IMG/VR virus record: IMGVR_UViG_3300049157_000049
Span: 1 to 61,531 of that record
Length of the DNA: 61,531 bases
Strand: one strand, 5' to 3'
Origin: a virus
Lineage: Duplodnaviria > Caudoviricetes
Part shown: positions 1 through 61,531 of the stretch, piece after piece
Position numbering within the stretch: position 1 is the first letter of the stretch
Layout: every line of letters begins with the position of its first letter
Made by a program: the position numbers and the translations under genes
The notes under the pieces: generated by a model
Databases searched by the model: none
What the model saw: the letters and a program-made list of their open reading frames with translations, nothing else
Told to the model about the DNA's origin: nothing

Positions 1-12
1 TCTGACTCCGGT
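1..12. repeat. 12-bp terminal direct repeat TCTGACTCCGGT (copy at 61520-61531); circular junction overlap
   Basis: First and last 12 nt are identical; merging them completes the portal reading frame (...DQPESDD*). Confidence 0.9.
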
Positions 13-1514
13 TGATCGGTGTCATCTTCGGATTCATCACTGTTGTCAGATGACACGCTCGGCCCGTTATCAGATTGATTCAGCCGGTCCGGTGTCAGCG
101 CCGCGAGTAGCTCAGACAGAGATCGGTAGGCAACCATCATCCCTTGCTGTTCGACGACGTAGACGTCACCGTCCGGGTCTTCTTCAAACCCTTGCAACCG
201 CCGCCATTCGTTGACGGTGAGCGTGAACGGCCGGGCTTCAGCCGCCGCCGTCTCCGCTTCACGGTCCGCAGGGATCGGCGAGTCGTAATCGAGCAGGAAG
301 CGGTCGTCGAAGTGCGCGTCAATGACGGAGTGTTGGAGGTTTGACCGGTGCGATTCGAGCCGCGGGACGATGACATCTTTCGCGAAGATTCCATCGGCGG
401 CGTCTGCGGTCGCTCGATTGGAGTTCTCCACGATACCGAGCTTCTCGGGCGGGATGCCGATGACTTGAGCGAACGTGTCGCGGAGATCCTTGCCGAGATC
501 GGAGACGGACATTTCCCGGAGATCGGTGCTGCCGATTTGGTGCACCTTGATTTCCTTGTTGACGAAATGCATACGGAAAGCTTGTAAGAACCCTTGATGC
601 AAAGAGTTCCAGCCTAGTTTGTATTTTTTTAATGCACCACGGCTCGCTCCCGGAACCTCGACGATACCGTCGGGTCTCGCCTGGTTGAAGAAAAAGGACT
701 TGACGTATTTCGCGAGCGCTTCGGACGAATCGAGCTCGTCGGCGAGCGCTCCAACAACTCCGGATCCCCGCGTGTAGGGGTTGACGGGATCGACGTCTAC
801 GATCCAGATCATTTGGTTCGCGGGGATATCTACCGCCGACCCCCGAGCGGAAAACTGGACCGTGAAGAATGGGCGCTGGGGAGAGGCGATCTCCTGGATC
901 CAATGTGGCGGAAGCGGCCATAGCCCCGTAAGTTGCCCGTTGTCTAGTTGTTTGAAGATGGGACTCTCTCCGAGGATATCCACGTAGATCGTCATCAGCT
1001 TGAGGATGTTGTTGCCGCCGAGCAATGGGGACGGACGAGAAAGAATGTTGAAGACGGGGTGATCGACGATTTCAACCAGCTCACCGCGGTTGCGGAGTTG
1101 TTTGATCTCTTGATCTCGGTACCGCTGATCTACGTACTTGACCGCATCGAGCTGGCGCCAACGGCCCCCACCACGAAACGCGTCGTCCAGGGAGAGCGTC
1201 TTCCCGCGTTTAGCCCGCGCGTTGCTAGTACGGCGGGCAAATAACCGCCATCGCGTAGTGGACACCGCCCCCGCGATACGATGCTCGGCGGCGCGCAACC
1301 ACGGATGCGTGTTGTACGCATCGAGGAATTTCTGCGCGTTGCGTTTGGGGGGTGTGGAGCGGTTCAGAAGAGAGAATATCTCCGTCGCGATGGATTCGCC
1401 GGCGGGTGTCAGCTCGTCGACGGACTTTTCGACGGCGGCTATCTCTTGGGGTTGCGATTCCGCGAGCGCCGATACGCCATTTTGGAACCCGAGCCATTGC
1501 GCAAAGCGTCCCAT
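1..1514 (-). CDS. Phage portal protein (HK97-like), ~506 aa; crosses the junction and ends at TAA 61513-61515; absent from supplied ORF track
   Basis: Manual translation from ATG 1514: MGRFAQWLGF...YNTHPWLRAAEHRIAGAVS...FFFNQARPDGIV...IGIPPEKLGIVENSNRATA...TVNEWRRLQGFEEDPDGD. These are portal-type motifs, and the gene lies directly upstream of the prohead protease on the circle. Confidence 0.9.
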   Translation of the reverse strand, partial: MGRFAQWLGFQNGVSALAESQPQEIAAVEKSVDELTPAGESIATEIFSLLNRSTPPKRNAQKFLDAYNTHPWLRAAEHRIAGAVSTTRWRLFARRTSNARAKRGKTLSLDDAFRGGGRWRQLDAVKYVDQRYRDQEIKQLRNRGELVEIVDHPVFNILSRPSPLLGGNNILKLMTIYVDILGESPIFKQLDNGQLTGLWPLPPHWIQEIASPQRPFFTVQFSARGSAVDIPANQMIWIVDVDPVNPYTRGSGVVGALADELDSSEALAKYVKSFFFNQARPDGIVEVPGASRGALKKYKLGWNSLHQGFLQAFRMHFVNKEIKVHQIGSTDLREMSVSDLGKDLRDTFAQVIGIPPEKLGIVENSNRATADAADGIFAKDVIVPRLESHRSNLQHSVIDAHFDDRFLLDYDSPIPADREAETAAAEARPFTLTVNEWRRLQGFEEDPDGDVYVVEQQGMMVAYRSLSELLAALTPDRLNQSDNGPSVSSDNSDESEDDTDQPES

Positions 1515-4470: not shown

Positions 4471-4810
4471 TTGCGGTCTCCTTTTCGTTTCCCTCATCCT
4501 GATTCCCAGTATAGCCTAAGCCGCTTGGGTTGTCAAGTACCTTTTGGAGGGGGTGCCGCATCCGCGCATGGTAGTACCAGGTTTCGAGCGCCGCTTGCTG
4601 CTCCTCGATCTTTTCGTTTTGCTCCCGAAGGGCGTTTATGCGACGATTAAGCTGATCCGTAAGTTGAATCGCAAAGGATTCGCAAGATTCAACTTGCTTG
4701 GTTTTTGATGAAATGACTTTCGTATCCATCAACAAAAAGCCCAACAGCAAACCGATCACGAGAAGCTCAACGACTGCTACCAGCTTTAAGTTTGTGATTT
4801 GTCCCATCAT
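4442..4810 (-). CDS. N-terminally membrane-anchored coiled-coil protein
   Basis: TM segment LVAVVELLVIGLLLGFLL followed by heptad-like LNRRINALREQNEKIEEQQ. Confidence 0.55.
   Translation of the reverse strand: MMGQITNLKLVAVVELLVIGLLLGFLLMDTKVISSKTKQVESCESFAIQLTDQLNRRINALREQNEKIEEQQAALETWYYHARMRHPLQKVLDNPSGLGYTGNQDEGNEKETANEVADGGND
4508..4536 (-). promoter_or_regulatory. Sigma70-like promoter TTGACA-N17-TATACT with operator palindrome
   Basis: Minus strand reads TTGACA acccaagcggcttaggc TATACT. Confidence 0.75.
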
Positions 4811-4846
4811 TGCCCCTTGTACCCCCGAAGGGGCGTTAGGATCACC

Positions 4847-6235
4847 ATGAAAGAGATCCAACGTAAGATGCTAGACCATTTTCGGGTGACCATACTCGAG
4901 AACAAGTATATCCCAGTCAAGCCGTTTTCTAAACAGGCACAGTTTATTATGTCTCCTCAGCGCGAAGGGCTATACGGTGGTGCCGCATTTGGGGGTAAAT
5001 CGGTATGCTTGGCGATGTGCGCATTACAATATGTCGATGTGCCTGGATATAACGCTGTGTTATTTCGTAGAACTAATCCCCAATTGACACGCGCTGATGG
5101 GCTAGTGCCGCTTTTGGAGAGTTGGCTATTGGATTCGGATGCGCGGTATAACAAAACTCAACGTCTGTGGACTTTTCCATCCACTGCGACATTACGGCTA
5201 GACCAATTGCAGCATGACCATACGGTGCATGAACATCAGGGTGCACAGTACCAATTTATTGGGTTCGATGAGCTAACGCATTTTTACGAATCACAATACA
5301 GATATATGATGTCTCGGCTCCGCAAGCCAAAAGAGATGAACGTCCCTTTGCGCACTCGCAGCACCGCTAACCCTGGTGGACTAGGCCATAACTGGGTGTA
5401 TGACCGTTTTGTGAATCCTGAAACTGCGAAGGATCCAGAACGCAAAAAGCGCGTATTCGTACCCGCTCGTGTGGAGGATAACGTTGCGGCGGATGTTGAT
5501 GAATACGATAAGACACTACAGAACCTTACAAAAATTGACTACACGCGACTGCGTCACGGAGACTGGACGTCACAAAAGCCCGGAGAGATTATCACCATAG
5601 AGATGATCCAAGAGAATTTGATAAACCCCTCTGACATTCCTAAGAGCATTCGCCTGATTAGGTACTGGGATTTAGCGAGCTCGGCTATAACGGAGAGCAA
5701 CCGTGACCCGGATTGGACGGCGGGCGCCTTAGTGGGTGAATCGGAACGGATGTTTTATGTGGTGAATGTTAAAAGGTTTCGTGAGGAGCCCTATAAAAGA
5801 GATTTAAGGATTCGAGGGACGGCACGCACGGACGGCAAAGATATTACAGTTTGGTTCCAGCGGGACCCGGGTCAAGCTGGTAAAAGTCAGATCTTTACGT
5901 TCCAGCGTGATGTGCTGCCTGAGTTTTTGGTCGAAGGGGACCCAAAGCGTACGTCGAAGGTTATCGATTGGGAGTTCATCGCGCAGAAGCTCGAAGCGGG
6001 ACTTGTCAAGATCGTGAAAGGGCCTTGGAATATGGAAATGGAAACCGAGTTTTGCGAGCTGACGAGAGACGACCAGCACGCGCATGACGACATGGCCGAT
6101 GCCGTGAGTGGAGCTTTACGCGTGCTGGCCGAAAGTGAAGCGGCTTACGTGAGTTTTGAGCCTCCCTCGGGGTCTCTCGATGACGACGAAAGGGAAGAAG
6201 AAGGGGACGATAGCGTCGAATTCGCTTTCGTCTGA
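4847..6235 (+). CDS. terL: Terminase large subunit
   Basis: Walker A GGAAFGGKS, Walker B FIGFDE, TANPGG, nuclease motifs RYWDLA...DPDWTAG and HDDMADA. Start is probably ATG 4847 (track gives 4799). Confidence 0.95.
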   Translation: MKEIQRKMLDHFRVTILENKYIPVKPFSKQAQFIMSPQREGLYGGAAFGGKSVCLAMCALQYVDVPGYNAVLFRRTNPQLTRADGLVPLLESWLLDSDARYNKTQRLWTFPSTATLRLDQLQHDHTVHEHQGAQYQFIGFDELTHFYESQYRYMMSRLRKPKEMNVPLRTRSTANPGGLGHNWVYDRFVNPETAKDPERKKRVFVPARVEDNVAADVDEYDKTLQNLTKIDYTRLRHGDWTSQKPGEIITIEMIQENLINPSDIPKSIRLIRYWDLASSAITESNRDPDWTAGALVGESERMFYVVNVKRFREEPYKRDLRIRGTARTDGKDITVWFQRDPGQAGKSQIFTFQRDVLPEFLVEGDPKRTSKVIDWEFIAQKLEAGLVKIVKGPWNMEMETEFCELTRDDQHAHDDMADAVSGALRVLAESEAAYVSFEPPSGSLDDDEREEEGDDSVEFAFV

Positions 6236-6779: not shown

Positions 6780-7091
6780 CTAGTCATCTTTGTGTATAAC
6801 ATCCACTAGCACATCCCCGTGACATGTTAGCGGTGTACACCAGCATCCAAGTGTTTTGCCCCGAAGTTGCTTCTTTGCGGCGCGGATTAGGTCCGGTTGC
6901 ATGTTAAGCCACATGCGATATTTGTGTATGACCTTTCGTCGATCGCCGTGGATACCGATCACGAAAGGATTGCCCCATTTGGACGGTCGTCCAATGTAAA
7001 CATCGAATTTTGCCTTTTTGCAGTGGACAACCCGGGTTTTACCGGGTCTCTTTCCATGCGGCAGGGTCATAGGACCGGTTCTCCCCCACAA
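6780..7091 (-). CDS. DUF4326 family protein
   Basis: VYIGRPSKWGNPF...LRGKTLGCWCxPxxCHGDVL signature. Confidence 0.9.
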   Translation of the reverse strand: MWGRTGPMTLPHGKRPGKTRVVHCKKAKFDVYIGRPSKWGNPFVIGIHGDRRKVIHKYRMWLNMQPDLIRAAKKQLRGKTLGCWCTPLTCHGDVLVDVIHKDD

Positions 7092-7144
7092 AAATCTGGT
7101 AGGCGTAACATAGTATCCAGAGTAGCGGATATAAGATTACGTAC

Positions 7145-8482
7145 CTACACAGGACTTTTGAAAAATTTGTCAGCAAACTCCTTAGACCGCATGAGAGCGT
7201 CACGGAGACGAGCCTCTGACATGTGCCCTGACTTGAGACGTTCATTGTAGTGTTTTAGTCCTTCGATGTCGGCGTCCCGTTGGAGGATATCCCGGTAGGC
7301 AGCTGTGATGATATGCCCATACGGAAAATAAGGGATCTCGGGGTCCGGACTAGGGTCCGGTCCGGGAGACGGTTGTGCGCCACTCAGGTACTGCTCGATC
7401 TTGTTTAGCTCGCGATCCGGGTCCGAAGCCATACCCTCAAAATCGTGCATACAAAACGAGATTCCGTTTTCGAGAGTTTGTTCCATGAAGTCGATGTACT
7501 TTTGTACCTCGGTAGTCGTTGACGCCGGCCGAAACATCTCTTTTCCAGGCGGGAACGCTTTGCCAGGATCAGGTCCGGGCAGGGAGCGGGATTCCCACGC
7601 GGTGAGATCCATGTAATGCATCGATTCCGAGTAATAACGGATTTCGGTCTCCGGGCCGAGGTTGGTGCGCTCCCACCACCTGCCGTTGCGGGTCGGGTGG
7701 ATTACCCAGATATCGGCGCCGTCCGGCCGGCCCACCGTGTACTCTACGGTGTTTCGGCCCCCGTGATCCGCCATAACGAGCCCCTCCGGCCACTGCTCGG
7801 GCTTGCCGTTTTTCACTCGGCGGTGACGCACGAACTGCATGTTGAGCTCATCGAGCACCGCTTGCCGGGCCTGTTGCTGGGATTTCCCCGCAGCGCGCTC
7901 TTGCTTGAATCCATTCTGGTGCGCATCCCATTCGTTAATGAGCGAGTGGAAGAGGTTGTTCCCGCCGCGTTCCTGCTCGATCTCGCGCATCAAACGGGCT
8001 GTCTGCCGCGCGCAGTGGCCGATGACTTCGTACGGCACGCCGTCCGTGTGCTTCAGCGTCGCGTTGGTGACATACTCCGCGACGAGCCCGAATTCTTGGA
8101 GGATATCGACGAGAGCGGTGATCATTTGCCGGTTGAGCGGCGTGACTTCGCGGGGCCGATGACCCCGCTTGAGCGCGTTGATGTCCCAGACACCGTTGTT
8201 CCAGGGATACTGCCCGAAAAAGGGGTGATCGCCCGGGCGCTGCTCGTGGAGATCCCCCCAGTCCGCCGTTTCGCCGAAAACTCGCATCCCGTGGAATCCG
8301 AGGTCTTTGACGCGTTTCGCCCAGCGGCGCGCCTTGTCGAGCGGGTTGCCGCCGCGAGGGGAACCGCTCAAATGCTGGTTGAGCCACGCCATAAATTTGA
8401 ACGAGCTCCGCATACGGAGAACGGTCGGCCGGCCGTTGAGAGCAAAGAGGTTATCTTCCCGTCTGACTGAGATTTTTTCCAT
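7145..8482 (-). CDS. Putative glycoside-hydrolase-like TIM-barrel protein with Pro-rich linker and C-terminal DUF4214-like domain (possible lysin)
   Basis: LGFHGMRVF, INEWD (clan GH-A-like NE), YYSES; linker PSPGPDPSPDPE; AYRDILQRDADIEGLKHY...LMRSKEF. Confidence 0.55.
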   Translation of the reverse strand: MEKISVRREDNLFALNGRPTVLRMRSSFKFMAWLNQHLSGSPRGGNPLDKARRWAKRVKDLGFHGMRVFGETADWGDLHEQRPGDHPFFGQYPWNNGVWDINALKRGHRPREVTPLNRQMITALVDILQEFGLVAEYVTNATLKHTDGVPYEVIGHCARQTARLMREIEQERGGNNLFHSLINEWDAHQNGFKQERAAGKSQQQARQAVLDELNMQFVRHRRVKNGKPEQWPEGLVMADHGGRNTVEYTVGRPDGADIWVIHPTRNGRWWERTNLGPETEIRYYSESMHYMDLTAWESRSLPGPDPGKAFPPGKEMFRPASTTTEVQKYIDFMEQTLENGISFCMHDFEGMASDPDRELNKIEQYLSGAQPSPGPDPSPDPEIPYFPYGHIITAAYRDILQRDADIEGLKHYNERLKSGHMSEARLRDALMRSKEFADKFFKSPV

Positions 8483-8492
8483 GATTTTGCCC

Positions 8493-8726
8493 CTAGTCTT
8501 TCATGTGCATCCGTGCGGCGGCCGCGCGGGATTCCCGTGCTTTCCATGACGCGAACAGCGTACCGACAAGAACGATCGCGGATTCGATGACAGGCCGGAG
8601 CTCCCCGAGGAACTCGTTCGCACCTACCGGTACGTCGACGAAAAACGACAAGACGAGCAGAATGAAGCCCGTCACAGTGGCCCATTTCACTTTGCTGGAT
8701 ATGAGAGTCATTAGAGGTTGTCTCAT
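8493..8726 (-). CDS. Holin-like small 2-TM protein
   Basis: AAGGAG RBS before ATG 8726; two hydrophobic helices and a basic C-terminus; directly upstream of the GH-like gene. Confidence 0.5.
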   Translation of the reverse strand: MRQPLMTLISSKVKWATVTGFILLVLSFFVDVPVGANEFLGELRPVIESAIVLVGTLFASWKARESRAAAARMHMKD

Positions 8727-8751
8727 GATGTGTCTCCTTGATGTAATATGA

Positions 8752-8976
8752 CTACTTTGACAGTTTCTTGCGGCCAGGCTTTGGCGGATGGCGCTCCCGA
8801 CGATGCTTAAGAACTTCAACCTCCTCACGATCCAGCAACATGTTGCCGGAGATTGTGATGTATTCCAGCGTCCCGGCCATGCAGTACGACCGGACGGAGG
8901 ATACGGACACGCCAAGAATCTTAGCTGCGTCGGTCACCGACAGCAGATTTTCTTGAAGATGCGCCATATTCAGCAT
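8752..8976 (-). CDS. HTH_17/excisionase-like DNA-binding protein
   Basis: LLSVTDAAKILGVSVSSVRSYCMAGTL; KPGRKK tail. Confidence 0.8.
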   Translation of the reverse strand: MLNMAHLQENLLSVTDAAKILGVSVSSVRSYCMAGTLEYITISGNMLLDREEVEVLKHRRERHPPKPGRKKLSK

Positions 8977-8982
8977 GTATCG

Positions 8983-9067
8983 AGTCTAGCGAACAAACCT
9001 TGCGCAGTCAACAGCGTATTAGCGTAAAGATTTAATGGTTGACTTATATGCTACATAGTGGTACAGT
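8983..9067. promoter_or_regulatory. Divergent sigma70-like promoter pair
   Basis: Minus strand TTGACT-N17-TAGACT toward the HTH gene; plus strand TTGACT-N17-TACAGT (9039-9067). Confidence 0.6.
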
Positions 9068-9115
9068 GTTTTAAGCCATGTAACACCTTGTAAACCCAAT
9101 AGTTAGGGGGCTGAT

Positions 9116-9322
9116 ATGACTAAAATTGTCAAGATCACAAATACGATCGCTTGGTTTGAGGGCATCGCGGAAGCGGTTGAAACTAAGCTCGATAGGCAGC
9201 AAGACGAGCTCGTACAGCTCAGCGTGCGCATCCGGGACAGCAAATCGCAGCTTGACCGTCTCCGGGGTGCCATCCAGCGCGCGCGGAGTCGCGGAGATGT
9301 GGAAATGACGGTGGAGGCGTGA
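9116..9322 (+). CDS. Small coiled-coil hypothetical protein
   Basis: AGGGGG RBS; follows the plus-strand promoter. Confidence 0.6.
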   Translation: MTKIVKITNTIAWFEGIAEAVETKLDRQQDELVQLSVRIRDSKSQLDRLRGAIQRARSRGDVEMTVEA

Positions 9323-9323
9323 G

Positions 9324-9629
9324 ATGGGGCAACAGGTGATGGCACTCGACAAGCAAGGCACTGTGTTACGGATGGTTCGATTTCGCCGCGCGGGTTTATG
9401 CTGGGTGGCTACTGTCAGCTCCGTCTGCCTCCACAGGACGCAGCACACCGACCCACCCACCGCTGGGGAAGGGTGGACGAAGATCAGCGCCTTAGAGCGA
9501 GCCCTAGCGGCTTGGGTGAGGCAGGCCGAGAATGCCGCACAAGCAGAGCGGGCGCGACGACGGGCAATCGAGAGGTCGCCAGACGGGGCCGGAAACGCGG
9601 CGGTGGGTATTGATCCGTCCGAAAAATAA
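9324..9629 (+). CDS. Hypothetical protein
   Basis: GGAGG RBS; abuts the previous gene. Confidence 0.5.
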   Translation: MGQQVMALDKQGTVLRMVRFRRAGLCWVATVSSVCLHRTQHTDPPTAGEGWTKISALERALAAWVRQAENAAQAERARRRAIERSPDGAGNAAVGIDPSEK

Positions 9630-16263: not shown

Positions 16264-16857
16264 TTATTTCACGTCCCGTGCGCAACGGAAGCCAAGGCCG
16301 TCCCAGTCGTCCGACGGGACGCTAGCGAGCCGGTACGCGGAGCGGACGTACCTGGCGTCCGAGTCCCAGGAACCGCCGCGAATGACCCGCTCCGAGCCTT
16401 CTTCTGTCGAGGTCCACTCATAAACTTGCCCGAGCATATCGTAGAGACCGAGATTGTTGGGTTTTTTTGTCATTACCGCTTTCTTTTCTGTTTGGCCGTA
16501 CACCGCAAATTCGTACAGCTCACCCAAGCTCGGGTAAAACGCCCCAAAACGGCACGCGTACTCCCATTCGGCGTCTGTCGGCAGTCGGTAGCCGCGTGCA
16601 TCACAATATGCCTTAGCATCGTACCAGGACACATCGGTCATAGGGTGGTTATCCGGGCCTTTATGGAACACCGAGCTAGCATAACCCAAATGTTGTTTGT
16701 ACTGCCCGATAGTCACGGGCGTAATGGCCATCTCAAAAGTCCGAATAGACCCGCCGCCAGGAATCCGCACGAATTGGGTCTCTGTAGTAGAGTTGTTTTT
16801 TGGTTTCTCCACCAACTCATACTCGATGCCATCAATGGTCAGTTTGATGTTTGACAT
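16264..16857 (-). CDS. FGE-sulfatase (SUMF1/C-type lectin fold) domain protein, copy 1
   Basis: PVTIGQY, P..DVSWYDAKAYC, RLPTDAEWEYACR, KPNNLGLYDMLGQVYEW, VIRGGSW, GFRCAR. Confidence 0.93.
   Translation of the reverse strand: MSNIKLTIDGIEYELVEKPKNNSTTETQFVRIPGGGSIRTFEMAITPVTIGQYKQHLGYASSVFHKGPDNHPMTDVSWYDAKAYCDARGYRLPTDAEWEYACRFGAFYPSLGELYEFAVYGQTEKKAVMTKKPNNLGLYDMLGQVYEWTSTEEGSERVIRGGSWDSDARYVRSAYRLASVPSDDWDGLGFRCARDVK
16285..16389 (-). repeat. DGR-like variable region VR1 (paired with 16920-17024)
   Basis: 35-codon alignment with VR2: 18 non-synonymous and 0 synonymous differences, mostly in NNC codons. Confidence 0.65.
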
Positions 16858-16901
16858 TTTTTCTCACTCCTTAGGTTGAAACATGTTGCCATGGTAGCCC
16901 T

Positions 16902-17399
16902 TTAGATGTCTCGGGCACAACGGAAGCCGCCGTTGAGCCAGTCGACCGACGGGTCGTACTCGTACCGGTCCGCGACGCAGACGCTCCCGGCGTACGAGTG
17001 CCAGCAACCGCCGCGAAGGATCCGAAACGAGTCCGCGTCTGTTGCTGTCCACTCATAAACCAGCCCCAACATATCGTATAGCCCTAAGTTGTTGGGCTGT
17101 TTTGTACCGACAGTAGCCATACTGGTCCGCTCATAAACAGCGTATCGATCGAGGTCGTCTAGGTCCGGATAGAACCCTCCAAACCTGCACGCATATTCCC
17201 ATTCCGCATCGGTTGGAAGGCGGTAGCCGTGTTCAGCGCAGTACGAAGACGCGTCAAACCACGTTACCTCGACGGCGGGATACTTGCTGCCCACGGCAAT
17301 TTTGGTGTACTGCTCGACCGTAGTAGGGGTTGCGGCCAACTCGAAGGACCGAATATTACCTTGGCCGGGCACATGGATGAATTTGATATCGGATGTCAT
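16902..17399 (-). CDS. FGE-sulfatase (SUMF1/C-type lectin fold) domain protein, copy 2
   Basis: Same motif set; AGGAGG RBS. Confidence 0.93.
   Translation of the reverse strand: MTSDIKFIHVPGQGNIRSFELAATPTTVEQYTKIAVGSKYPAVEVTWFDASSYCAEHGYRLPTDAEWEYACRFGGFYPDLDDLDRYAVYERTSMATVGTKQPNNLGLYDMLGLVYEWTATDADSFRILRGGCWHSYAGSVCVADRYEYDPSVDWLNGGFRCARDI
16920..17024 (-). repeat. DGR-like variable region VR2
   Basis: See VR1. Confidence 0.65.
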
Positions 17400-17409
17400 T
17401 TTGTACCTC

Positions 17410-17850
17410 CTAAACTAGCACAGGTTGCCACGGCAGCACGTCAACAAGTATACGGCTGAGGCGGCGCGCGGATTCCGCAAATTTGGCGGCTCGATCGTGT
17501 TGGTCAATTTTGGCAAGCTGCTCAGAAAGCAGAGTGCATCGGTGGCGGGCAGCGGAGATTTGATAATGGAGCTCCCTCCGCGCAAGGACGTCTTCTATCT
17601 TGGCTAACATGGCCTTTGCGTCGGCAATCTGGCGATCTCGAGCGGTTTGGTGGCGGATTTGCCAGGGAAGGGTACCGCGAGCGTAGTTGTAGAGGCGCCG
17701 TTCCGCATTGAAGAACCGGTCGGCGGTGGCGGTTTGGCCGGATTTGGAGAAAGCGATCGCGCGGCTCATCGCTCGGCGGCGGGCAGCGCGGACGGTTTCT
17801 GTACGGGCGCGGATTGCGGATGGCGTGTTGATGTTTTGGAGTTTTGTCAT
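17410..17850 (-). CDS. Hypothetical basic helical protein
   Basis: GGAGG RBS; TAATG coupling at 17850. Confidence 0.6.
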   Translation of the reverse strand: MTKLQNINTPSAIRARTETVRAARRRAMSRAIAFSKSGQTATADRFFNAERRLYNYARGTLPWQIRHQTARDRQIADAKAMLAKIEDVLARRELHYQISAARHRCTLLSEQLAKIDQHDRAAKFAESARRLSRILVDVLPWQPVLV

Positions 17851-23891: not shown

Positions 23892-24878
23892 TCAGGTAGA
23901 GGTTGATTTGGTGGGGGGCGACGGGGTGACGTCGATGGTTTCCGCTAGGGCGCGATCCATCGCTTCGGAGTATTCGATGTACATTTGTTCCACATTGATA
24001 ACTGGTTTTACTGTAGGAGCCCGCTCTTTCTCACGAGCACGTTCCGCCCGCTCAACAGGGTCAAAGATTTTGATTTTCGCGAGAGTGTCAAGTGCGTCTT
24101 TGCGGTTGTAGAATTCGAATTCTGTATAGACATCTCTTTTATTTGTGTCAGGATCAATTACGACTTTTTGTCTTACTTTACGTATACAAGGCATTACCTT
24201 ATCAAGCTCACCAGTTGATAGATGATCAAGGGTAATTTCGTATTGTCCTGACGAATTCTTTTTTGTAATTACAGCAGGATTAAATTCAGCTATCTCCTGA
24301 ATACGTAAGGTTATGTCATTACAACTATACTCAAGTGAATTCGAAAGACGCTCGCTTTCGAGCGCGAGCGACGCCTTGACCTTCTTCCTTGCCAAAATGT
24401 TCCTAGATTGCACATTTGCCCGTTTTCTGCTAAATCCCGCATTTACCGCGCTTTGGATGCGGTCTCCGGCAGCGTCGCCCCAGATATATTCCAGCACAAA
24501 CTTATAAACCTTTGGAGGCAACTTATACGGATTTTTGACGTCATATGACGACTTTTCCGCGAGTAATCTTTCAACTGAACCTGATAAATTCGCCTGCTGC
24601 CGCGAAAAATCGCCAAATTCCGGCAATTTTGAGTTCTTCTGGACGGATTCCCGGGTCGATAAGCTGACGAGCTGTTGATCTGATAGATCCCCCACTGAAT
24701 CTGCCGCGGATTTCGCCGCTGACTCGAGTGCGCGGGTTTCCCGCTTCTCGGCGGACTCGGTGCGCTTGCGAGCTCGCGACCGCGCATGTGGCGACTTGGA
24801 TGCGGAGTCTATGCCCGCATCGTCCGGCGCGGAAAGGAAGAAGCCCTTTCGGCGAGTGCGTTTGGGTCGATCGCTCAT
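23892..24878 (-). CDS. terS: Terminase small subunit with long N-terminal extension
   Basis: KFVLEYI...IQSAVNAGFSRKRA....RNILARKKVKA HTH, IQEIAEFN, FYNRKDALDTLAK match the TerS pattern. Confidence 0.75.
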   Translation of the reverse strand: MSDRPKRTRRKGFFLSAPDDAGIDSASKSPHARSRARKRTESAEKRETRALESAAKSAADSVGDLSDQQLVSLSTRESVQKNSKLPEFGDFSRQQANLSGSVERLLAEKSSYDVKNPYKLPPKVYKFVLEYIWGDAAGDRIQSAVNAGFSRKRANVQSRNILARKKVKASLALESERLSNSLEYSCNDITLRIQEIAEFNPAVITKKNSSGQYEITLDHLSTGELDKVMPCIRKVRQKVVIDPDTNKRDVYTEFEFYNRKDALDTLAKIKIFDPVERAERAREKERAPTVKPVINVEQMYIEYSEAMDRALAETIDVTPSPPTKSTST

Positions 24879-31071: not shown

Positions 31072-33699
31072 CTATTCTTTGATGTCTGCGAGGTTATAGC
31101 CAAAGCCGCTATCAACTTCAACAGGTACTGACAGCGGCACAGCGTTAATCATGAGGTCTTCCATCATGGTTTTTGTGTTGTGTTTCTCATCTGGCGAATC
31201 CGGTGTTTCCACGGTCAGGTCATCATGAATCTGTAGCAACGGAAACACTAACAGAGTGGACGCCGCCACTTCTTCCATGACGAGATTCATGGCGCGTTTG
31301 ATGATCTCTTGCGCGGTTCCTTGGATACGGAAGTTGATTGCGGCACGCTCCGCTTCGAATCTCGTATAGGCGTTCTCCGAGTGGATGCCCGGAAGGATCC
31401 GTTTACGGCCGAGCTGGGTGCGCACGTATCCGTGGCGACGGCAATATTCTTTGGACTCTTCCATGTACACCTTAACACCTGAAACCAGCTTAAGATACTC
31501 CTGTAGAAACTCTTCACATTTTGTGAGTGGCCAGTTCAGTCCTACTTTATTCAATGACAGATAGAGCTTTTTAGCGCCCCCTCCGTACACCGTAAGAAAC
31601 CCAATTGTCTTTGCTGGGAACCTCTGCGAACCTTTATCGACGGCATCAACAGGTATATCCCAGATCATTGCGGCGGTTTTGGAGTGTTGGTCCTCTCCAT
31701 TGCGAAACGTCTCGCACAGAAACGGGTCACCGGAGATGTGAGCGAGCACACGCATCTCAATACCGGAGTAATCTGCGCCGAACATGATGTGGCCGGCACG
31801 GACGATAAACGCTTTCTTGATACGCTTGCCGAGCTCCGTTCGGGCGGGCAACGCGAGCACGTTTGGATCGAATGCAGACAGTCGCCCGGTTATCACGCTT
31901 GTAATGCGGAAATTAGGGTGAAGCGTACCGTTCTTGACGTACTCAGGGATCTTATCCGCATATGTGCTTTTAAGCTTTAGCAGCCCCCGATATTCCAGCG
32001 TTTTGCTTAGAAGCCAGTGCGCAACCTCCCACGATTCGGACTCCTCAGTGTCGAGCTCCAACATGTTAATCAGCGTTTGGATGTTAGGCTCATTCAAGCT
32101 AGGCTGGCCTGAATCCGTTTTCGTCGGGGGCATTGGTATATTACCGAGACCGTCATAGAGAAATTCCGTAAGTTGTTTTGACGAATTTAGGTTCAAGTCT
32201 GTCCCCAGCTTATCCTTAATCTCACCATGGATCCCTAGCATCTTACTCATAAGCTCATCTGACAGCGTCTTGAGCGCCTCCAGATCGGGATAAAGCCCGT
32301 ATTCCTGCATGCGATTGATAAACGTAATGGCACCTAGGTCGTTCTGTATGCTTTTGCCTAGCTTATTACGTCGGATCTCCTCTTCAAGGATCGGCAATAC
32401 CTCATACGTCGCATGTGCGTCTCGGGCGGAGTAGTATATCGCATCTTCGAGCGGGATATCATCGAGAGTCGGCTCGGGCATATCGCCAAACTTTTCAATG
32501 GCGGGCGCTTTATCCGCATGGTCCCATTTCTTCCAACGCTCTCGTAGATCTGCTTTCTTGATTTTGTCTTCCGCGAGATCAGATAGAAGCCTGTCGAGCT
32601 TGCGATTCAATGGCCACGGTTTCTTTGCAACCATCTTCCCGCCTTTGAACTCGGTACGCGGCGGAGTCGGTCCCCAGTCGTAATCCGCTATCTCCATTAT
32701 ATACTTGAACGCAAGGCTTGCGGACGGCTTAGCAATCATGTCTCTGTAGGATTTCATCTTCATGCCGCAATGGCGCATGGCGAGGGGCTTCAAGCCCTGC
32801 GGCTCTACTTGTAATTGGTATGACAATACCTGGCTATCCGTAAACTGCATACGTTCCACACAGAGAACTCCAAGAACCTTAAGCATACGAATATCGTATA
32901 GCGCATTATGGTAAATTATCCGGGGGCGATTCCGATTAAGCGCGTCGTCGAACGCTTTTATCAAACGGGCGCCATTGGGTCCATGCAGTCGAATGACGTA
33001 AGCAACGCCAGATTCAGAGCAAAAACTCAGCCCCCAAGGGTTGTAAGGCGTCCCTTCAGTATCGACAGCAACCGATCCCTTCAGCTTGCGTCTAAGAAGC
33101 TTCACGGCAACTGGTACAGACATCTTGTTGATATCAATGTATTTGGGAGATGGGTGTTTGTCTCGAATCCTCTTAAGCGGGAGCTCCCCCCTTAGGTAGC
33201 GGCCTAATTGTCTATAGTCGTACTCGATGAAAGGCTGTAGATCGTGGTTATGCATCCCTCCGGCTGGGTGGTAGAGCGGTACAACCCACCCTTGATAGCC
33301 AGTGGCCTTTGAGCGCGCCCATTGGGCTTTCCCATGGACCACATCCATCGAACACCGGGGGCCTAAAAAGAACCGCGCGGAAAACGCTCCAACCGCACCG
33401 ATGATGCCCGGGTTTACCTCCTCAATCTCCGCGCTCAGCTTGCTTACGTCTCGGGAGATCTCCCAAGGTAGGGGATCCGGGTCGCCTTCTTTGTAGTCTT
33501 TAACCAGGTTGGTTTTGTAGTACGAGTATTTCCGTATCCCTGCCGCTGCCATGTAGCGATCTTGCTCGCGGCCAGATGCGCCCACAAATGGAAGCCCAAG
33601 CTCGGCTTCCGTCTTGCCAGGGCGCTCTCCGACAACCATTAGCTCCGCAGGGACGGGGCCATCCCCGGGCACCCAGATCTGCTTAGGCTTACGATTCAT
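31072..33699 (-). CDS. polA: Family A DNA polymerase with N-terminal uracil-DNA-glycosylase-like domain and 3'-5' exonuclease
   Basis: UDG: VPGDGP..AELMVVGERPG..E...G.PFVGASG, YHPA. Exo: VAVDTE, HNALYD, YSARDA. Pol: TGRLS, ADYSGIEMR, AKTIGFLTVYGGG, QIHDD. Confidence 0.96.
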   Translation of the reverse strand: MNRKPKQIWVPGDGPVPAELMVVGERPGKTEAELGLPFVGASGREQDRYMAAAGIRKYSYYKTNLVKDYKEGDPDPLPWEISRDVSKLSAEIEEVNPGIIGAVGAFSARFFLGPRCSMDVVHGKAQWARSKATGYQGWVVPLYHPAGGMHNHDLQPFIEYDYRQLGRYLRGELPLKRIRDKHPSPKYIDINKMSVPVAVKLLRRKLKGSVAVDTEGTPYNPWGLSFCSESGVAYVIRLHGPNGARLIKAFDDALNRNRPRIIYHNALYDIRMLKVLGVLCVERMQFTDSQVLSYQLQVEPQGLKPLAMRHCGMKMKSYRDMIAKPSASLAFKYIMEIADYDWGPTPPRTEFKGGKMVAKKPWPLNRKLDRLLSDLAEDKIKKADLRERWKKWDHADKAPAIEKFGDMPEPTLDDIPLEDAIYYSARDAHATYEVLPILEEEIRRNKLGKSIQNDLGAITFINRMQEYGLYPDLEALKTLSDELMSKMLGIHGEIKDKLGTDLNLNSSKQLTEFLYDGLGNIPMPPTKTDSGQPSLNEPNIQTLINMLELDTEESESWEVAHWLLSKTLEYRGLLKLKSTYADKIPEYVKNGTLHPNFRITSVITGRLSAFDPNVLALPARTELGKRIKKAFIVRAGHIMFGADYSGIEMRVLAHISGDPFLCETFRNGEDQHSKTAAMIWDIPVDAVDKGSQRFPAKTIGFLTVYGGGAKKLYLSLNKVGLNWPLTKCEEFLQEYLKLVSGVKVYMEESKEYCRRHGYVRTQLGRKRILPGIHSENAYTRFEAERAAINFRIQGTAQEIIKRAMNLVMEEVAASTLLVFPLLQIHDDLTVETPDSPDEKHNTKTMMEDLMINAVPLSVPVEVDSGFGYNLADIKE

Positions 33700-43202: not shown

Positions 43203-44324
43203 TCACGCTTTGTAGCTGAGCTTGCCCTCAATTTTAGCACCTAAATGAAGCCCTGCAAAGATCGATTGCATCGACTGGCACCAGCCGGGAGCGATGTCGT
43301 AGCGGTTTTTCGGGTCATGGCCATCCTGTCCTATGTAACGACAGTGGCATCCACCAAAACTGACAGGGTTCGCCGCGCAGTCCCCACAATCGAAGCCCTT
43401 TGGTGTCCGCATCTGGGAGTTTTTGATCCCACTGACTTCTGTAAGTCGGGTCTGGTTAATGACGGGGTCGTGGAATACGTCACCCACTTTGTAATATTCT
43501 GCGGTGCCTTCCGCCACACCCGGCTCGAACGCTTTGAACGCCATCTCTTGGCTCGGGTACAGATAGCCTTCCGGTGTTAACGCAAGCATTGATAGCCCAG
43601 TTCCGCACGGCTGCAGAGGTTTTGAACTACGAATGTAAGTTTCGTAGAATTTACCAGCCCAATTTGATGACATGGATTTCCGTATGCACAACCGCATCAC
43701 CCGCTTCATGAAATCTTGTAGCATGATTCGGGACTCCGGCTTCCATTCTTTGAGCCAATTGATGTTGAAATTTAGTTTCTTGAATCCGCGGTCGATCATC
43801 CAGTGGAGATCATCTGTCGAGAATGGAACATCTGGGTCAAGTTGCCAAGCGATCTCGAGACCGGGTCTCCATTTGAGTAGGGACTCGGGGTCTATTACGT
43901 CCCATGAAGGTTTTCCTTTGTAGTAGAAACGCTGCTTGTCGTGTATCCATGGTGGGCCGTCGAGAGACAGTAGCATCCCTACCTTATGGCTATCCATGAA
44001 TGACATAAAATCATCGTCGAGCATGGTGCCGTTTGTGGTGATTGACCATTTCAAATTAAGAGGGGAGTTAGACCATTCCGTCACGACCTTTTTGATGAGG
44101 GGTTTATTGAGAAGGGGTTCGCCTCCATACCAAATGATGTTGAGGTTTTTGTCCTTCTTACACCAATCGTTGATGAGCCATTCAAACGCGCGATCGGCAG
44201 TCCTTGGCGGCATCATCTTGAATAGTCCCGCATTCTTTTGCCATTTCCATTGGTGACTGCCCTGGTAGCAATAACTACAATCCAAGTTGCATGTTCTCGT
44301 GTTGACAAGCCAAAGTGTTTTCAT
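43203..44324 (-). CDS. Radical SAM enzyme with SPASM-like domain (anSME/peptide-maturase type), ~373 aa
   Basis: CNLDCSYC (CxxxCxxC), YGGEPLL, TTNGT, SLDGP..HD..R; C-terminal PCGTG..LTPEG.LYP, CGDC, GGCHC, WC. ATG 44324 overlaps the upstream TAA. Confidence 0.95.
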   Translation of the reverse strand: MKTLWLVNTRTCNLDCSYCYQGSHQWKWQKNAGLFKMMPPRTADRAFEWLINDWCKKDKNLNIIWYGGEPLLNKPLIKKVVTEWSNSPLNLKWSITTNGTMLDDDFMSFMDSHKVGMLLSLDGPPWIHDKQRFYYKGKPSWDVIDPESLLKWRPGLEIAWQLDPDVPFSTDDLHWMIDRGFKKLNFNINWLKEWKPESRIMLQDFMKRVMRLCIRKSMSSNWAGKFYETYIRSSKPLQPCGTGLSMLALTPEGYLYPSQEMAFKAFEPGVAEGTAEYYKVGDVFHDPVINQTRLTEVSGIKNSQMRTPKGFDCGDCAANPVSFGGCHCRYIGQDGHDPKNRYDIAPGWCQSMQSIFAGLHLGAKIEGKLSYKA

Positions 44325-47300
44325 TATAGATCTTCGTCTCCGGACTCTCTGCCTGATTGACAGATTGACTGACATTGCGATTGGCAATGGGTTTGACACC
44401 CTACCTGACAGTTCAGTTCACACGTAGATTGGCAATTCAACTCACAGTTAGATTGACAGCTAACCTCGCATGTAGACTGGCACGTTACCTGGCACCCGGT
44501 CTGGCAAGTGATTTGGCAACCAGACTGGCACCCTTGTTGGCAAACAGTTTGACATGACGATTCACACGGTGATTGGCAACCGAGCTCACAAGCTGTTTGG
44601 CAGGAAGACTCACACGGAGTTTGACAGCCCCCGCCCTCACACCCTCCCTGACAAGCAAGCTCACACGTAGCCTGACATGAGCTTTGACATGTGTCCTGAC
44701 AAGTCAGCTCGCACGTCGATTGACAGGCAAGTTGACAGGTATCTTGGCACGCACTCTGGCATGCAATTTGACATGATGCTTCGCAAGTCTCTTGGCAAGC
44801 GATTTCGCACGTATCCTGGCACGATTGTTGGCACGTTGACTGACAGGATGATTGACAGAATCCTTGACACTCATTAACACACGCTTGGCTCGCAACCGTT
44901 ACGCGATCGTCAGTCGCGGTGAACTGTACCAGGCCCGACAGCGCGTCTTTCGATAGAGATATAATCCGGAAAATTTCATTTGAGATTTGGCCCGACTTAC
45001 CGAGTCCTCTTCGCTTCAAGATCTTAAACTTGTCACCTACTTCCTTGCGCATCAACTTCCCCCCGATGACTGTGCCTTGTATCTTGCGCGCAGCAGATGA
45101 TGACAGTTCGAGAATCCGTGACGCTAAGGACTCCGCATTGTCCGTGATCTTTAGATACGTCTCTACAGGTTTTATGTCCGGACGTCCCAGTAATACGGAA
45201 ACTGACGTGTCGGAGCGTTCAACGGACTCAAACGTACCGCGCGAGGGGTCTTGGTCGAAATCCACACGGATCTTAGCGAATACCTCATTTGAGGCTCTTG
45301 ACGAAGAGAAATCAGAAATATCGTAATCAAACACAGTAGTTATATTGTCGGCTACTGTACCTACATAAATCTGATAGAAGATTTTGCCTGAGCCATCAAT
45401 GATGATGTTCCCGAGATTACTACGCTCCAATGTGTCAAAGATTTCGCTTGTGCTTGTGCTTTCACGGAGATAGATGCTAAGAGATTCCGCAGCGGTATCT
45501 CGAGCGAACAAAAAGCTAGTCGTGTCGATTGCGCTCGACGGTTTACCCATGAAGCGCACAAGGAGCGTCTGGAGAATGTCGGCCCCTATCTCAATAAGAG
45601 CATCTGCGGTGCCCGTGAAGGTTCCGCTAGCGTCGTCTCGATACCCTTTAGCGTCCGTTCGCAGGATGTGATCGCGATCAACGTCGTCAAATATTGCGTT
45701 GTCGGCTTCATAGCTTAGCGACCCCGTGTTGTCGTCCCCGAGATTGAACCCTAGCAGCCCCCAACCAGTGGAGCTAGAATGGGACCCCGTTTTTGTAAGT
45801 AGGTTAGCAGTTCCGGCATCCTTTGAAACCGTGATTTGATGCGTGGTATTACTGTATGCACAATTCCAGTCGGCCGCGCCAGCGTCTCTTAGCTGCGTCT
45901 GCACATGTGCTGCTAAAGACTGCGCCGTGTAGAGTCCCGACGTCAACTCGGCGGTAAGCTCCGCACCCCCTTCATTGAAGTCCAAACGAGAGTTGGTGTC
46001 GAGCACGCGGTATGGACCCACATCGCGAGAGATAGTGAATCTACCGTTGTCAACATCCGTTGTATAGTCTGTCCCATCGACAAGCTCTAGCCGCTCGGTC
46101 GTTAACCTTAACCCTGCGAATTCCTCAGACGTGTAAGCATAGACTGTGGTTATTTCTTTGATACCGTTTGGGGCTCTACTTACATCCGCGACCTCATAGA
46201 CCCCATAATCGTTTGCAGTTACGTTTACACGAAAAGGTGTGATGTTGGATTTCACCCCGAAAAATACAGGTTTTATACGTCCGTCAGTTTTTGTAAGGCT
46301 TAAATTGGGAAGGTCGTCTTCAGAATAGAGATCCGTCGCAATCTGCTGATGGAAGAACGTTCGCTCGTCATCCAAATCGAACGTCGCTATGTCATCTGTG
46401 ATGTTGATGCGCTGGATTAGGCCTGTCATTTGAGCGAAATACTGGTTGACGTCGAGCTCAACAGTCGTTCCATCAGACGCCTCAATGGCACCCCCGATCT
46501 TGACGATGACAGACTGACTCATCCATTGTAGTTCGGCAACCAAACGTTCGATGAATCCATCGGAATTGATTAACGACACGTCCCCACTACCTATTTGTTT
46601 CCCTGCGAAATAGATATCAGGCGAACCCGTCTCAAGACTAGGGATGGAGGAATTGGAGACCCGGGGGTCATAAGGGTAGTAACGATAGATTCTCTCCATC
46701 ACGATACCGTCATACAACACGATCGATGTACCGCTGCCGCCCGATTTGGTTTCGAACGTTACGACATGATTACCACTACTCTCTGCGCGAAAATCCACGA
46801 TGAATCGTTTCCAAGCGTCTCCGGTATTGTTGAGGTCAATATCTCCATCAAAACTCGCAACGTCTTCCCAATTGGTCCCGTCTGTGTGTACAAATGCATT
46901 GGGTGTTGCGAAGTTATCACGGACCCGTATTACCCCCTGCGTGGCGTTCGTGCCTATCGTTTTGTAATACCCGTGTAGACGATAACGGTGGCCGGAAACT
47001 AATGTAATGTTCCCTGTAGTTAGAATAGTCTGCCCACCGACTGTTGTATCAGCCGCTGTAAGCCTCGCTGCGGAAGAATTTATCTTTACGTCAGTGGTTT
47101 CTTCGTCGACGGTGCCCGTTCCTGTCTTGGTGAAATTGTCAGGCGAGCCTCCAGTCCAATTTTCAAAGTCCCCGTTTGTTACGAGATTGTTGCCGGATAG
47201 ATCGGGAAGAATTAGTGCTTTTGACGCGAAATGAAATGGCACAACGGCGGCTACTGTGGTGTCTGACGGATCGCTGCCATCCGAAAGATTGACGTAGAGC

Positions 47301-48349
47301 TGTCGCACTTGGTCCCAACAATTAATGACGGTCCCGGGGCCGGTCCCTGTCGCGGTTGTTCCCGCAGATGTGAAATCGCCGCTGCTACCCCGATTGCTGG
47401 TGAAGTCCCCATTCACGAAAAAGATGAGCGGCTGCACGCCGTCCGCAAGGGAGCCATCTTCGCCAAGATTTTTTGGCGTACTCCCAGAGAAAAACTTGGC
47501 TAGCTCGGTTGAATCATTCGGATTATGTAGTACTGGATGGAACCACAGATTCGCCAGCTCACCGTTTAGTTGTTGAGTGCCCGCTAGTTGCCCGATTTCG
47601 TACTCACCCCCGGTCAAATCGATATCGTTCGCGGGGCTAGCTGTGGACGATCCGACAACTACACCGTCAACCGCTACGTAGGTTGTTGCTGATGTATCGA
47701 AACCTACCATAACATGATGCCAGTCCCCATCCGCCGTAACAGTGACTGAGCTGGTGATGGTAAACATCGTGTTATTTGACGAATCTTTTGCTATGACACG
47801 GATATTGTCGTCATTGTCACGTAGCACGTTGATCCGACCGCTACCGCTAACGTTGTGTGCGAAGATTTGTTGTGTAGTCCCGTCCCCACCGTTGAATTTA
47901 ACCCACGTTGAGAAAGTAGCTACGCTGCTATCAAACGCGCCGGACAAGCTTGCTATTTCGTATTGTGTGTTTGTACCGTTGAAGACAGCGGACTCCCATG
48001 CGGGTGCATCCCAAAACGAGCCATCATCCCAGTTGATAACCGGCGCATCAAAAACCTCATCCACATCGTAGAAAAATGTCCCAACGGTCGCGATGCAATC
48101 CGCGAGGGTGTCAGCTCTTGAGAGTACCTCATCGGCGGTTTTGACGGATATCACATCGCGCACCACGTCATCAAATACGAAGTCGTGCACGGAAACGTAA
48201 GTCGTTCCTGAGTGTAACGACCAATCAGCGACTTCGACTACCGGGCGCAACTCAACAGTCGCTACGCGATTCGGGTCTGTTAAATCGAGAAGCTCATCTA
48301 GATCGGGCGAACCCGTCGTGACACCCAGCCTTCCGTTTCGTGCAGCCAT
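44324..48349 (-). CDS. Large tail-tip/host-specificity protein (~1341 aa) with LamG-like and CBM-like inserts and a C-terminal (CxxX)44 repeat
   Basis: Follows TMP and the Dit-like gene; TGATG coupling at 48349. LamG-like: FNG..TFSTWV..DGDWHHV..VDG..GELANL. CBM-like: NLVTNGDFE. Confidence 0.85.
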   Translation of the reverse strand: MAARNGRLGVTTGSPDLDELLDLTDPNRVATVELRPVVEVADWSLHSGTTYVSVHDFVFDDVVRDVISVKTADEVLSRADTLADCIATVGTFFYDVDEVFDAPVINWDDGSFWDAPAWESAVFNGTNTQYEIASLSGAFDSSVATFSTWVKFNGGDGTTQQIFAHNVSGSGRINVLRDNDDNIRVIAKDSSNNTMFTITSSVTVTADGDWHHVMVGFDTSATTYVAVDGVVVGSSTASPANDIDLTGGEYEIGQLAGTQQLNGELANLWFHPVLHNPNDSTELAKFFSGSTPKNLGEDGSLADGVQPLIFFVNGDFTSNRGSSGDFTSAGTTATGTGPGTVINCWDQVRQLYVNLSDGSDPSDTTVAAVVPFHFASKALILPDLSGNNLVTNGDFENWTGGSPDNFTKTGTGTVDEETTDVKINSSAARLTAADTTVGGQTILTTGNITLVSGHRYRLHGYYKTIGTNATQGVIRVRDNFATPNAFVHTDGTNWEDVASFDGDIDLNNTGDAWKRFIVDFRAESSGNHVVTFETKSGGSGTSIVLYDGIVMERIYRYYPYDPRVSNSSIPSLETGSPDIYFAGKQIGSGDVSLINSDGFIERLVAELQWMSQSVIVKIGGAIEASDGTTVELDVNQYFAQMTGLIQRINITDDIATFDLDDERTFFHQQIATDLYSEDDLPNLSLTKTDGRIKPVFFGVKSNITPFRVNVTANDYGVYEVADVSRAPNGIKEITTVYAYTSEEFAGLRLTTERLELVDGTDYTTDVDNGRFTISRDVGPYRVLDTNSRLDFNEGGAELTAELTSGLYTAQSLAAHVQTQLRDAGAADWNCAYSNTTHQITVSKDAGTANLLTKTGSHSSSTGWGLLGFNLGDDNTGSLSYEADNAIFDDVDRDHILRTDAKGYRDDASGTFTGTADALIEIGADILQTLLVRFMGKPSSAIDTTSFLFARDTAAESLSIYLRESTSTSEIFDTLERSNLGNIIIDGSGKIFYQIYVGTVADNITTVFDYDISDFSSSRASNEVFAKIRVDFDQDPSRGTFESVERSDTSVSVLLGRPDIKPVETYLKITDNAESLASRILELSSSAARKIQGTVIGGKLMRKEVGDKFKILKRRGLGKSGQISNEIFRIISLSKDALSGLVQFTATDDRVTVASQACVNECQGFCQSSCQSTCQQSCQDTCEIACQETCEASCQIACQSACQDTCQLACQSTCELTCQDTCQSSCQATCELACQGGCEGGGCQTPCESSCQTACELGCQSPCESSCQTVCQQGCQSGCQITCQTGCQVTCQSTCEVSCQSNCELNCQSTCELNCQVGCQTHCQSQCQSICQSGRESGDEDL
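44351..44881 (-). repeat. Coding tandem repeat of 44 Cys-x-x-x units (12-nt period)
   Basis: CVNE CQGF CQSS CQST...CQSI CQSG; Q or E follows Cys in 43 of 44 units; one 5-residue unit (CEGGG). Confidence 0.97.
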
Positions 48350-61363: not shown

Positions 61364-61531
61364 TAAAACGCAACCAAATTACGCCTGTCAAACGGTAACC
61401 CGCTGTGTTTAGAGAAAGTTAAGGGGTTTGGTATGTTGGTTTAGCCGTACAAGTACAAAACGGAAGAAAGGTTTACGGGGAATTTTTCGCGGGGGGTGTT
61501 GCAGGATTAAATTTAGTCATCTGACTCCGGT

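Follow-up and report, generated by a model that had tools for sequence, protein, structure and literature searches.

The window analysed here is the whole 61,531-nucleotide stretch of the virus record IMGVR_UViG_3300049157_000049, and it carries on its minus strand two tandem genes, referred to as genes A and B, which are the subject of this report. Both genes encode small proteins of the FGE-sulfatase/C-type-lectin fold (FGE, formylglycine-generating enzyme), and both contain near their 3′ end a variable region (VR) with the marks of a diversity-generating retroelement (DGR), a system in which target genes are rewritten from the adenines of a template repeat (TR) by means of a reverse transcriptase (RT). 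Neither an RT nor a TR was found in the window.

Genes A and B are paralogues that encode stand-alone versions of this fold. Their proteins are 53% identical (BLASTP), gene B being devoid of the ~32 N-terminal residues of gene A, and their nucleotide sequences align without gaps over 364 nucleotides with 67.6% identity (blastn). The lectin-type fold, which had been proposed in the original prediction from the letters of the DNA, is confirmed by the Pfam matches of both genes (Table 1), by an AlphaFold2 model of gene A (predicted local distance difference test score, pLDDT, 89; predicted template modelling score, pTM, 0.85; 114 aligned homologues) and by the top PDB fold match of this model. 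This match is 2y3c, the Treponema denticola variable protein 1 (TvpA; E 6.2e-15), and formylglycine-generating enzymes come next. Both genes thus present the C-terminal VR on a C-type-lectin/FGE fold that is typical of DGR targets, the VR covering the final ~50 codons ahead of a short conserved tail. In comparison with the enzyme equivalogs EgtB, SenA, GldK and PvdO, both proteins stay far under the NCBIfam cut-offs, the top scores being 78 bits for EgtB (cut-off 360) and 57 for SenA (cut-off 420). Both also lack a segment of ~18 residues, which is present in nine of ten aligned homologues and shorter in the tenth. A and B are read as minimal, putatively non-enzymatic, lectin-fold binders, and no signal peptide or other export signal is evident in them when the sequence is read by eye. 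A strong Shine-Dalgarno motif precedes each start codon, and that of gene A indicates that this gene is intact and can be translated. The pair is located ~24 kb from the tail module, between the ThyX gene and small unannotated genes, which agrees with the earlier claim that it lies among accessory genes. This location is unusual for phage DGR targets, which are chiefly tail receptor-binding proteins (PMC10743442).

The codon pattern of the two VRs differs markedly from that of the rest of the genes. Over the core block of 35 codons (alignment codons 82–116), a recount codon by codon reproduced the figures of the original prediction: 17 codons are identical and 18 are different, all 18 differences are non-synonymous, 16 of them affect codon positions 1 and 2 only, and 14 keep a C at the third position in both copies. 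Upstream, 10 of the 16 codons for the peptide YRLPTDAEWEYACRFG differ synonymously between the two genes, also as claimed. When all informative codons for the same residue are counted (methionine and tryptophan excluded), synonymous differences are found in 29 of 42 codons of the upstream flank (alignment codons 0–67) and in none of the 15 of the core block (binomial P 2.3e-8, Fisher P 1.7e-6). The differences at codon positions 1, 2 and 3 amount to 14, 11 and 2 in the core as against 15, 16 and 45 in the flank (chi-square P 1.7e-5). On the 3′ side of the block the synonymous divergence is back at once, in three of the next four codons. Towards the 5′ side of the genes, the extended block of codons 68–116 contains a synonymous difference in one of 22 informative codons, and at that site one copy has an A, as adenine mutagenesis would allow. 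Alignment codon 68 is the most likely start of the homogenised block, and this gives VRs of 147 nucleotides with 108 identical scaffold positions and 39 differing sites. The base composition of the VRs is also distinct. The GC content at third codon positions (GC3) is 0.78 in VR-A and 0.82 in VR-B, compared with 0.59 and 0.61 in the respective gene bodies, and the latter values match the mean of the phage genes (0.61, 27 genes). Conversely, adenines account for 0.15 of the VRs as against 0.24–0.27 of the gene bodies (VR-A 0.15, body 0.27).

A template deduced from the variable sites and from the sites at which both copies have an A would contain 49 adenines, and all 39 differing sites fit such a single template. 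Since only two copies are available, this fit is automatically true and is no test by itself; confinement of the substitutions to template adenines is likewise judged by comparing one VR with the other, and this comparison is strongly consistent with it. The informative checks are the lack of synonymous change, the independent retention of adenines, and the fact that neither copy is the template of the other. VR-A keeps 22 and VR-B 21 of the 49 template adenines, so that the mutated fraction is 55–57%, in line with the mutation density of ~50% per event reported for active DGRs (bioRxiv 10.1101/2024.11.15.621889). The adenine is kept in both copies at 10 sites, as against the 9.4 that two independent writings would predict. 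Of the 39 differing sites, 16 have an A in neither copy, and the other 23, which have one, are divided 12 to 11 between the copies. The possibility that one VR served as the TR of the other was ruled out by those 16 sites. The scaffold is identical while the gene bodies are saturated with synonymous change, which points to one source for both blocks, acting long after the duplication of the genes. It is, then, well supported by the sequence comparison that VR-A and VR-B carry a DGR-type, single-template scar of adenine mutagenesis. As no TR or RT matching the VRs was found anywhere, we infer from this scar that a DGR was the author and that the template was common to both. The coordinates of these and of the other features are given in Table 1.

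Table 1. Positions of the features discussed in the text; those of the last row belong to the record named there, all others to the window.
Feature	Position	Strand	Remarks
Gene A	16264..16857	-	197 amino acids; stand-alone FGE-sulfatase/C-type-lectin fold; Pfam PF03781, E 2.1e-32
VR-A (gene A)	16285..16431	-	147 nucleotides; core block 16285-16389
Shine-Dalgarno AAGGAG	16867..16872	-	9 nucleotides upstream of gene A ATG; read from sequence
Gene B	16902..17399	-	165 amino acids; paralogue of gene A; Pfam PF03781, E 4.6e-26
VR-B (gene B)	16920..17066	-	147 nucleotides; core block 16920-17024
Shine-Dalgarno AGGAGG	17406..17411	-	6 nucleotides upstream of gene B ATG; read from sequence
Terminal direct repeat, left copy	1..12	.	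exact match to 61520-61531
Terminal direct repeat, right copy	61520..61531	.	exact match to 1-12
Portal open reading frame	1514..3	-	open at left end; in frame across junction; stop within few codons at right end
Prohead protease	60473-61363		after portal frame across junction
Capsid	59228-60454		after prohead protease
DGR of IMG/VR record G082 (locus L165)	6800-9411		VR 7978-8091; TR 8144-8257; RT 8335-9411, 358 amino acids

The lack of a visible RT and TR in the record, already noticed in the original prediction, is borne out by six-frame, Pfam, blastn and scaffold scans. A six-frame search of the record with PF00078 (RVT_1) gave no match at E≤1, and the same search detects the brt gene of phage BPP-1 with E 9e-19. 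No member of the RVT family appeared in a Pfam scan of 79 open reading frames (ORFs) and no RT in a PHROGs scan of 77 ORFs. The accessory protein Avd is also absent, both from a six-frame search with PF05635 (no match at E≤1) and from the ORFs scanned with Pfam and PHROGs, while the HRDC and MSL accessory types, covered by the general Pfam scan of the 79 ORFs only, did not appear in it. A third copy of the scaffold was found neither by blastn with word size 7 nor by a sliding scan of the 108 invariant positions, in which the two VRs score 108 of 108 and the next best place of the record 54. As a control, blastn recovered the canonical VR/TR pair of another phage, in which 19 of 19 mismatches correspond to A in the TR. 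No remnant of a cassette was detected in the 238-nucleotide spacer after gene A, in the neighbouring ORFs (no relevant family at E≤5) or in the ORF-poor stretch at 22.4–23.9 kb. After the VRs no shared GC-rich stem-loop or initiation of mutagenic homing (IMH) element was recognised; the 3′ flanks diverge at synonymous sites within four codons, and their DNA folds have z values of -2.4 and -1.1. IMH, GC-rich stretch and stem-loop elements are poorly defined outside BPP-1. Because the TR, the RT and the accessory gene are all missing, genes A and B are classified here as DGR-written target genes and not as a DGR system.

The record closes on itself and appears to be a complete phage genome of ~61.5 kb, although it is labelled "linear" and CheckV estimates its completeness at 75%. 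Its first 12 nucleotides are the same as its last 12, no other overlap length from 10 to 399 nucleotides matches, and an exact terminal repeat of this size has a chance of ~4^-12. The portal ORF runs in frame across the junction thus formed, and is followed there by the genes for the prohead protease and the capsid. Genes for packaging, head, connector, tail, replication and nucleotide metabolism are all encoded according to the Pfam and PHROGs scans of the 79 and 77 ORFs, in which neither an integrase nor any other lysogeny gene was recognised. The longest contigs with homologues of the capsid measure ~60–61 kb. The 12-nucleotide repeat could represent filled-in cohesive ends or the trimmed product of a circular assembly; under either origin little or nothing would be missing, and for this reason the CheckV estimate was set aside. 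As the record is probably complete, a gap in the contig is an unlikely excuse for the absence of both RT and TR.

Other features of this genome deserve a brief description. The layout of the packaging genes is unusual: the large terminase (4799-6235, plus strand) is near the portal end, and the sole small-terminase-like ORF (23892-24878, minus strand), a weak match with 25.3 bits against a cut-off of 26.1, is ~19 kb apart on the opposite strand. Adjoining the tail module, a stretch of the minus strand (43203-48436) contains the gene for a protein of 1,370 amino acids and, directly downstream and slightly overlapping with it, a gene for a radical S-adenosylmethionine (SAM) enzyme (43203-44399). 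The C-terminal part of the large protein weakly matches TIGR04117, "Cys-Xaa-Xaa-Xaa repeat radical SAM target" (E 1e-8, below the cut-off), and may be a tail protein modified by the phage-encoded enzyme. An 875-residue fusion (31072-33699, minus strand) combines, according to Pfam, a domain of the uracil-DNA-glycosylase superfamily, a 3′-5′ exonuclease and a family A DNA polymerase. Within the head and connector module, an ORF of 254 amino acids (57048-57812, minus strand) has a cytidylyltransferase-like domain (PF02348, E 4e-16). The Rfam and tRNA scans of the window were empty.

The template was also sought outside the record. Two exact scaffold motifs, with N at the variable sites, had no match in the IMG/VR viral contigs, in the JGI metagenome contigs or in the genomes of 185,579 species; these scans require an exact scaffold and cover assembled sequence only. 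A blastn comparison of the VR with cultured phages and plasmids gave chance matches only (at most 23% query cover, E of at least 2). A strain-specific DGR of a host living in marine sediment could easily be missing from such collections. Evidence on the population comes from one public run of a marine sediment metagenome, which is probably the source sample, in the form of Logan contigs only. One contig of depth 12.2 spans both genes with no differences; contigs drop rare variants, and a single uniform contig is therefore no proof of uniform VRs. The contig data list no variant and no joint at the VRs, and the loose ends listed (6 of 38) are placed outside them, at conserved FGE motifs near 16550-16591 and 17190-17226.

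Some contigs of low depth do fall on the VRs. One of 151 nucleotides and depth 2 lies on 16331-16380 with eight other letters, which by hand count is the number expected between the inferred template and VR-A over this interval; by the same count VR-A and VR-B differ there at 10 positions. Depth rises by about 2 at 16334-16379 and at 16932-16977, where short contigs of ~2x are placed on parts of the two VRs with ~84% likeness. These contigs could correspond to the template, to a rare VR allele or to an unrelated FGE gene. Among the 76 contigs placed on the stretch, 65 are less than 90% alike to it, and the six other partial contigs listed sit on conserved FGE motifs of other organisms, so that the 151-nucleotide contig is taken as a weak hint.

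No close relative of the phage was found in the collections searched, nor was any close relative of the locus found with gene A, for which the best of 3,589 BLASTP matches, apart from itself, is a protein 43% identical. For the capsid, the best matches reach 37.5% in cultured phages and, in the protein collection, 52%. There are 80 capsid-related IMG/VR loci with identities of 34–44%, of which 30 were examined, mostly the longer records; PF03781 is encoded in none of them and an RT in one. This one, the record G082, contains a canonical DGR in which VR, TR and RT lie within 1.5 kb and 19 of 19 mismatches between VR and TR are at TR adenines. DGRs therefore occur in the broad capsid group, and the tandem FGE pair is peculiar to the phage described here.

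FGE homologues are also encoded in 78 viral records (IMG/VR loci L004-L081, for instance L038-L041 and L043), many of which have tandem arrays of two to nine paralogues with VR-like C-termini. RVT_1 is found in none of 79 records (these 78 and the capsid relative L003), including the 11 that are at least 90% complete, and no TR-like partner is present within 8 kb of the FGE arrays. Among 209 pairs of genes from different records with bodies at least 95% identical, 157 have identical VR-like segments, 23 differ at one to three sites, 26 at four to nine and 3 at 10 or more. The signature of these arrays is weaker than that of genes A and B; in L043, two to four synonymous differences are found per VR.

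In its working the system resembles a multi-target DGR whose variable proteins are of the FGE type. Among known systems, the closest example is TvpA of the T. denticola DGR (PDB 2Y3C), which has the same FGE-type C-type-lectin fold and a C-terminal VR. In that bacterium several targets are served per template, some of them far from the RT (PMC5758913). However, RT and TR share the genome with their targets, whereas here neither is on the replicon, and A and B are, unlike TvpA, minimal proteins of 165–197 amino acids with no export signal evident to the eye. The DGR of Bordetella phage BPP-1 (mtd-avd-TR-brt) is also phage-borne, and resembles the present case in its C-type-lectin variable protein, its adenine-specific rewriting and its NNC/AAC codons. 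It differs in having the whole cassette next to a tail-fibre target, while the phage described here has no cassette, targets ~24 kb from the tail module and no recognised GC-rich IMH or stem-loop. Scars of adenine mutagenesis without an adjacent RT are known from the partial DGRs of Nanoarchaeota (PMC4372165) and from the RT- and TR-less loci of Thiohalocapsa PB-PSB1 (bioRxiv 10.1101/2023.09.22.558884), and have been read in these reports as fossils or as targets served remotely or in trans. Nevertheless, those loci belong to cellular genomes with DGRs elsewhere, some of them with a matching TR, whereas the whole replicon here is a phage genome in which no DGR part and no matching TR were found. 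Finally, G082, with a capsid 39% identical, falls into the same broad group of siphophage-like viruses with the HK97 fold and has a true DGR, but its target is a protein of 435 amino acids in the structural module with no FGE match in Pfam, and its TR has no similarity to VR-A or VR-B (local alignment score 9). The literature searches made here brought up no complete phage genome that has DGR targets but no DGR.

The reading that we favour, held with a confidence somewhat short of even, is that genes A and B are orphaned and now frozen DGR targets. According to it, the C-terminal 147 nucleotides of each gene would have been overwritten by mutagenic retrohoming, in which the error-prone reverse transcript of one shared, adenine-rich TR would have replaced the older VR sequence. 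The writing step would be that of established DGR biology, in which the RT copies the template RNA and misreads its adenines. The complementary DNA (cDNA) would then take the place of the VR, probably by pairing with target DNA that is transiently single-stranded during replication (PMC12875486). This would explain why the scaffold is identical base by base and why the ~40 positions of template adenines, mostly in NNC codons, have unrelated bases. Shortly after the last writing the cassette would have been lost from the lineage, or would never have come along with the genes, and both binding sites would now be frozen alleles subject to ordinary mutation only. We infer the frozen state of the VRs from the lack of a template in any collection and from the uniformity of the assembled population, which concerns contigs only. 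VR-only "partial DGRs" have been read in a similar way, as fossils or remote targets (PMC4372165).

Several observations weigh against this frozen state. The scaffold has no differences at 108 positions (95% upper bound of 2.7% divergence), while the synonymous sites of the gene bodies are saturated and the GC3 of these bodies is that of the phage. Taken together, these features argue for a long service of the template in such a genome with a recent last writing, and a loss of the cassette could have happened only very recently. Each gene is intact and has a strong ribosome-binding site, no remnant of a cassette is left beside them, and the evidence from contigs is weak, as a diversifying population could look uniform in it. 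The original prediction had proposed that both genes were rewritten from one template, acting in trans or belonging to a recently lost cassette. Its first part is sustained by scar and fold, and both of the proposed origins keep weight.

Service in trans is the alternative that survives best, and we consider it possible although on balance unlikely. The RT, the template RNA and the accessory protein would be encoded on the host chromosome, on a plasmid or on a co-resident phage or satellite, and would rewrite the VRs during phage replication. The recency of the last writing relative to a very old duplication, the integrity of both genes, the adaptation of their bodies to the phage composition and the lack of a cassette remnant nearby are all consistent with it. 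Experimentally, an avd-TR-brt cassette borne by a plasmid edits a target placed on a second plasmid or on the chromosome (PMC12875486; PMC5758913), and RT-less and TR-less loci have been described as diversified in trans within one genome (bioRxiv 10.1101/2023.09.22.558884). The replication module of the phage and its Sak4-like annealing protein could help the annealing of the cDNA. On the contrary, no template was found in the viral, metagenome, genome, phage and plasmid collections, and after the VRs neither a conserved GC-rich stem-loop nor a sequence common to both was recognised. The phage has no recognised lysogeny genes, which would limit its co-residence with a host DGR to the infection cycle, and according to Wu et al. 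(PMC5758913) DGRs linked to phages should have no remote targets.

It is improbable, in our view, that the cassette lies in cis but outside the record, either because a minority structural variant keeps the TR and the RT or because the assembly skipped them. Long reads have revealed intact RT/TR variants at a locus that seemed broken (bioRxiv 10.1101/2023.09.22.558884), the record is "linear" and 75% complete for CheckV, and the eight letters of the depth-2 contig equal the expectation for the template against VR-A. However, the ends of the record close on themselves through the 12-nucleotide repeat and the portal ORF across the junction, no joints or loose ends are listed at the VRs (6 of 38 loose ends listed), and that contig could well derive from some unrelated FGE gene. 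Gene conversion over the 147 nucleotides between the two paralogues, followed by strong diversifying selection on binding residues and with no DGR involved, is very improbable and was rejected as the main cause, having been named with the original prediction as a possibly better explanation: tandem paralogues do undergo conversion, and with two copies each difference can always be assigned to a template adenine, but 39 fixed substitutions would be needed, with two or three changes in 12 codons, while none of 15 (or one of 22) synonymous sites and two of 35 third positions of the core changed, the NNC codons, the adenine depletion and the raised GC3 of the block would be left unexplained, and the adenine retention of the two copies is statistically independent, as for two separate writings.

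As a rule, DGRs are detected and counted through their RT, and targets are sought beside it. Surveys of this kind miss remote targets (Roux et al., PMC8144416). A complete phage genome with two freshly written targets and no writer can be understood in two ways. The writer is truly absent from this replicon, and the weight given to its loss and to its presence elsewhere is that of the readings set out above. If the writer has been lost, phages would shed DGR cassettes fast, and the binding sites left over would be frozen but usable. If it acts in trans, mutagenic retrohoming would pass from one replicon to another in nature too, as in the two-plasmid experiments, and this would change the view of phage-host co-evolution and of the "ownership" of hypermutation. 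In a more specific and rather unlikely version, a non-integrating phage would keep tandem hypervariable binders and outsource the mutator to a DGR that sits elsewhere in the infected cell, on a different replicon; the accelerated evolution of a phage protein would then depend on whom the phage meets, and the RT-less FGE arrays of other viral records would be further cases. Because genes A and B lie among early or accessory genes and not with the tail, their products might work within the cell, for instance against proteins of host defence, rather than as receptor-binding tips. A and B also suggest that phages possess a class of lectin-fold binders that are minimal and non-structural.

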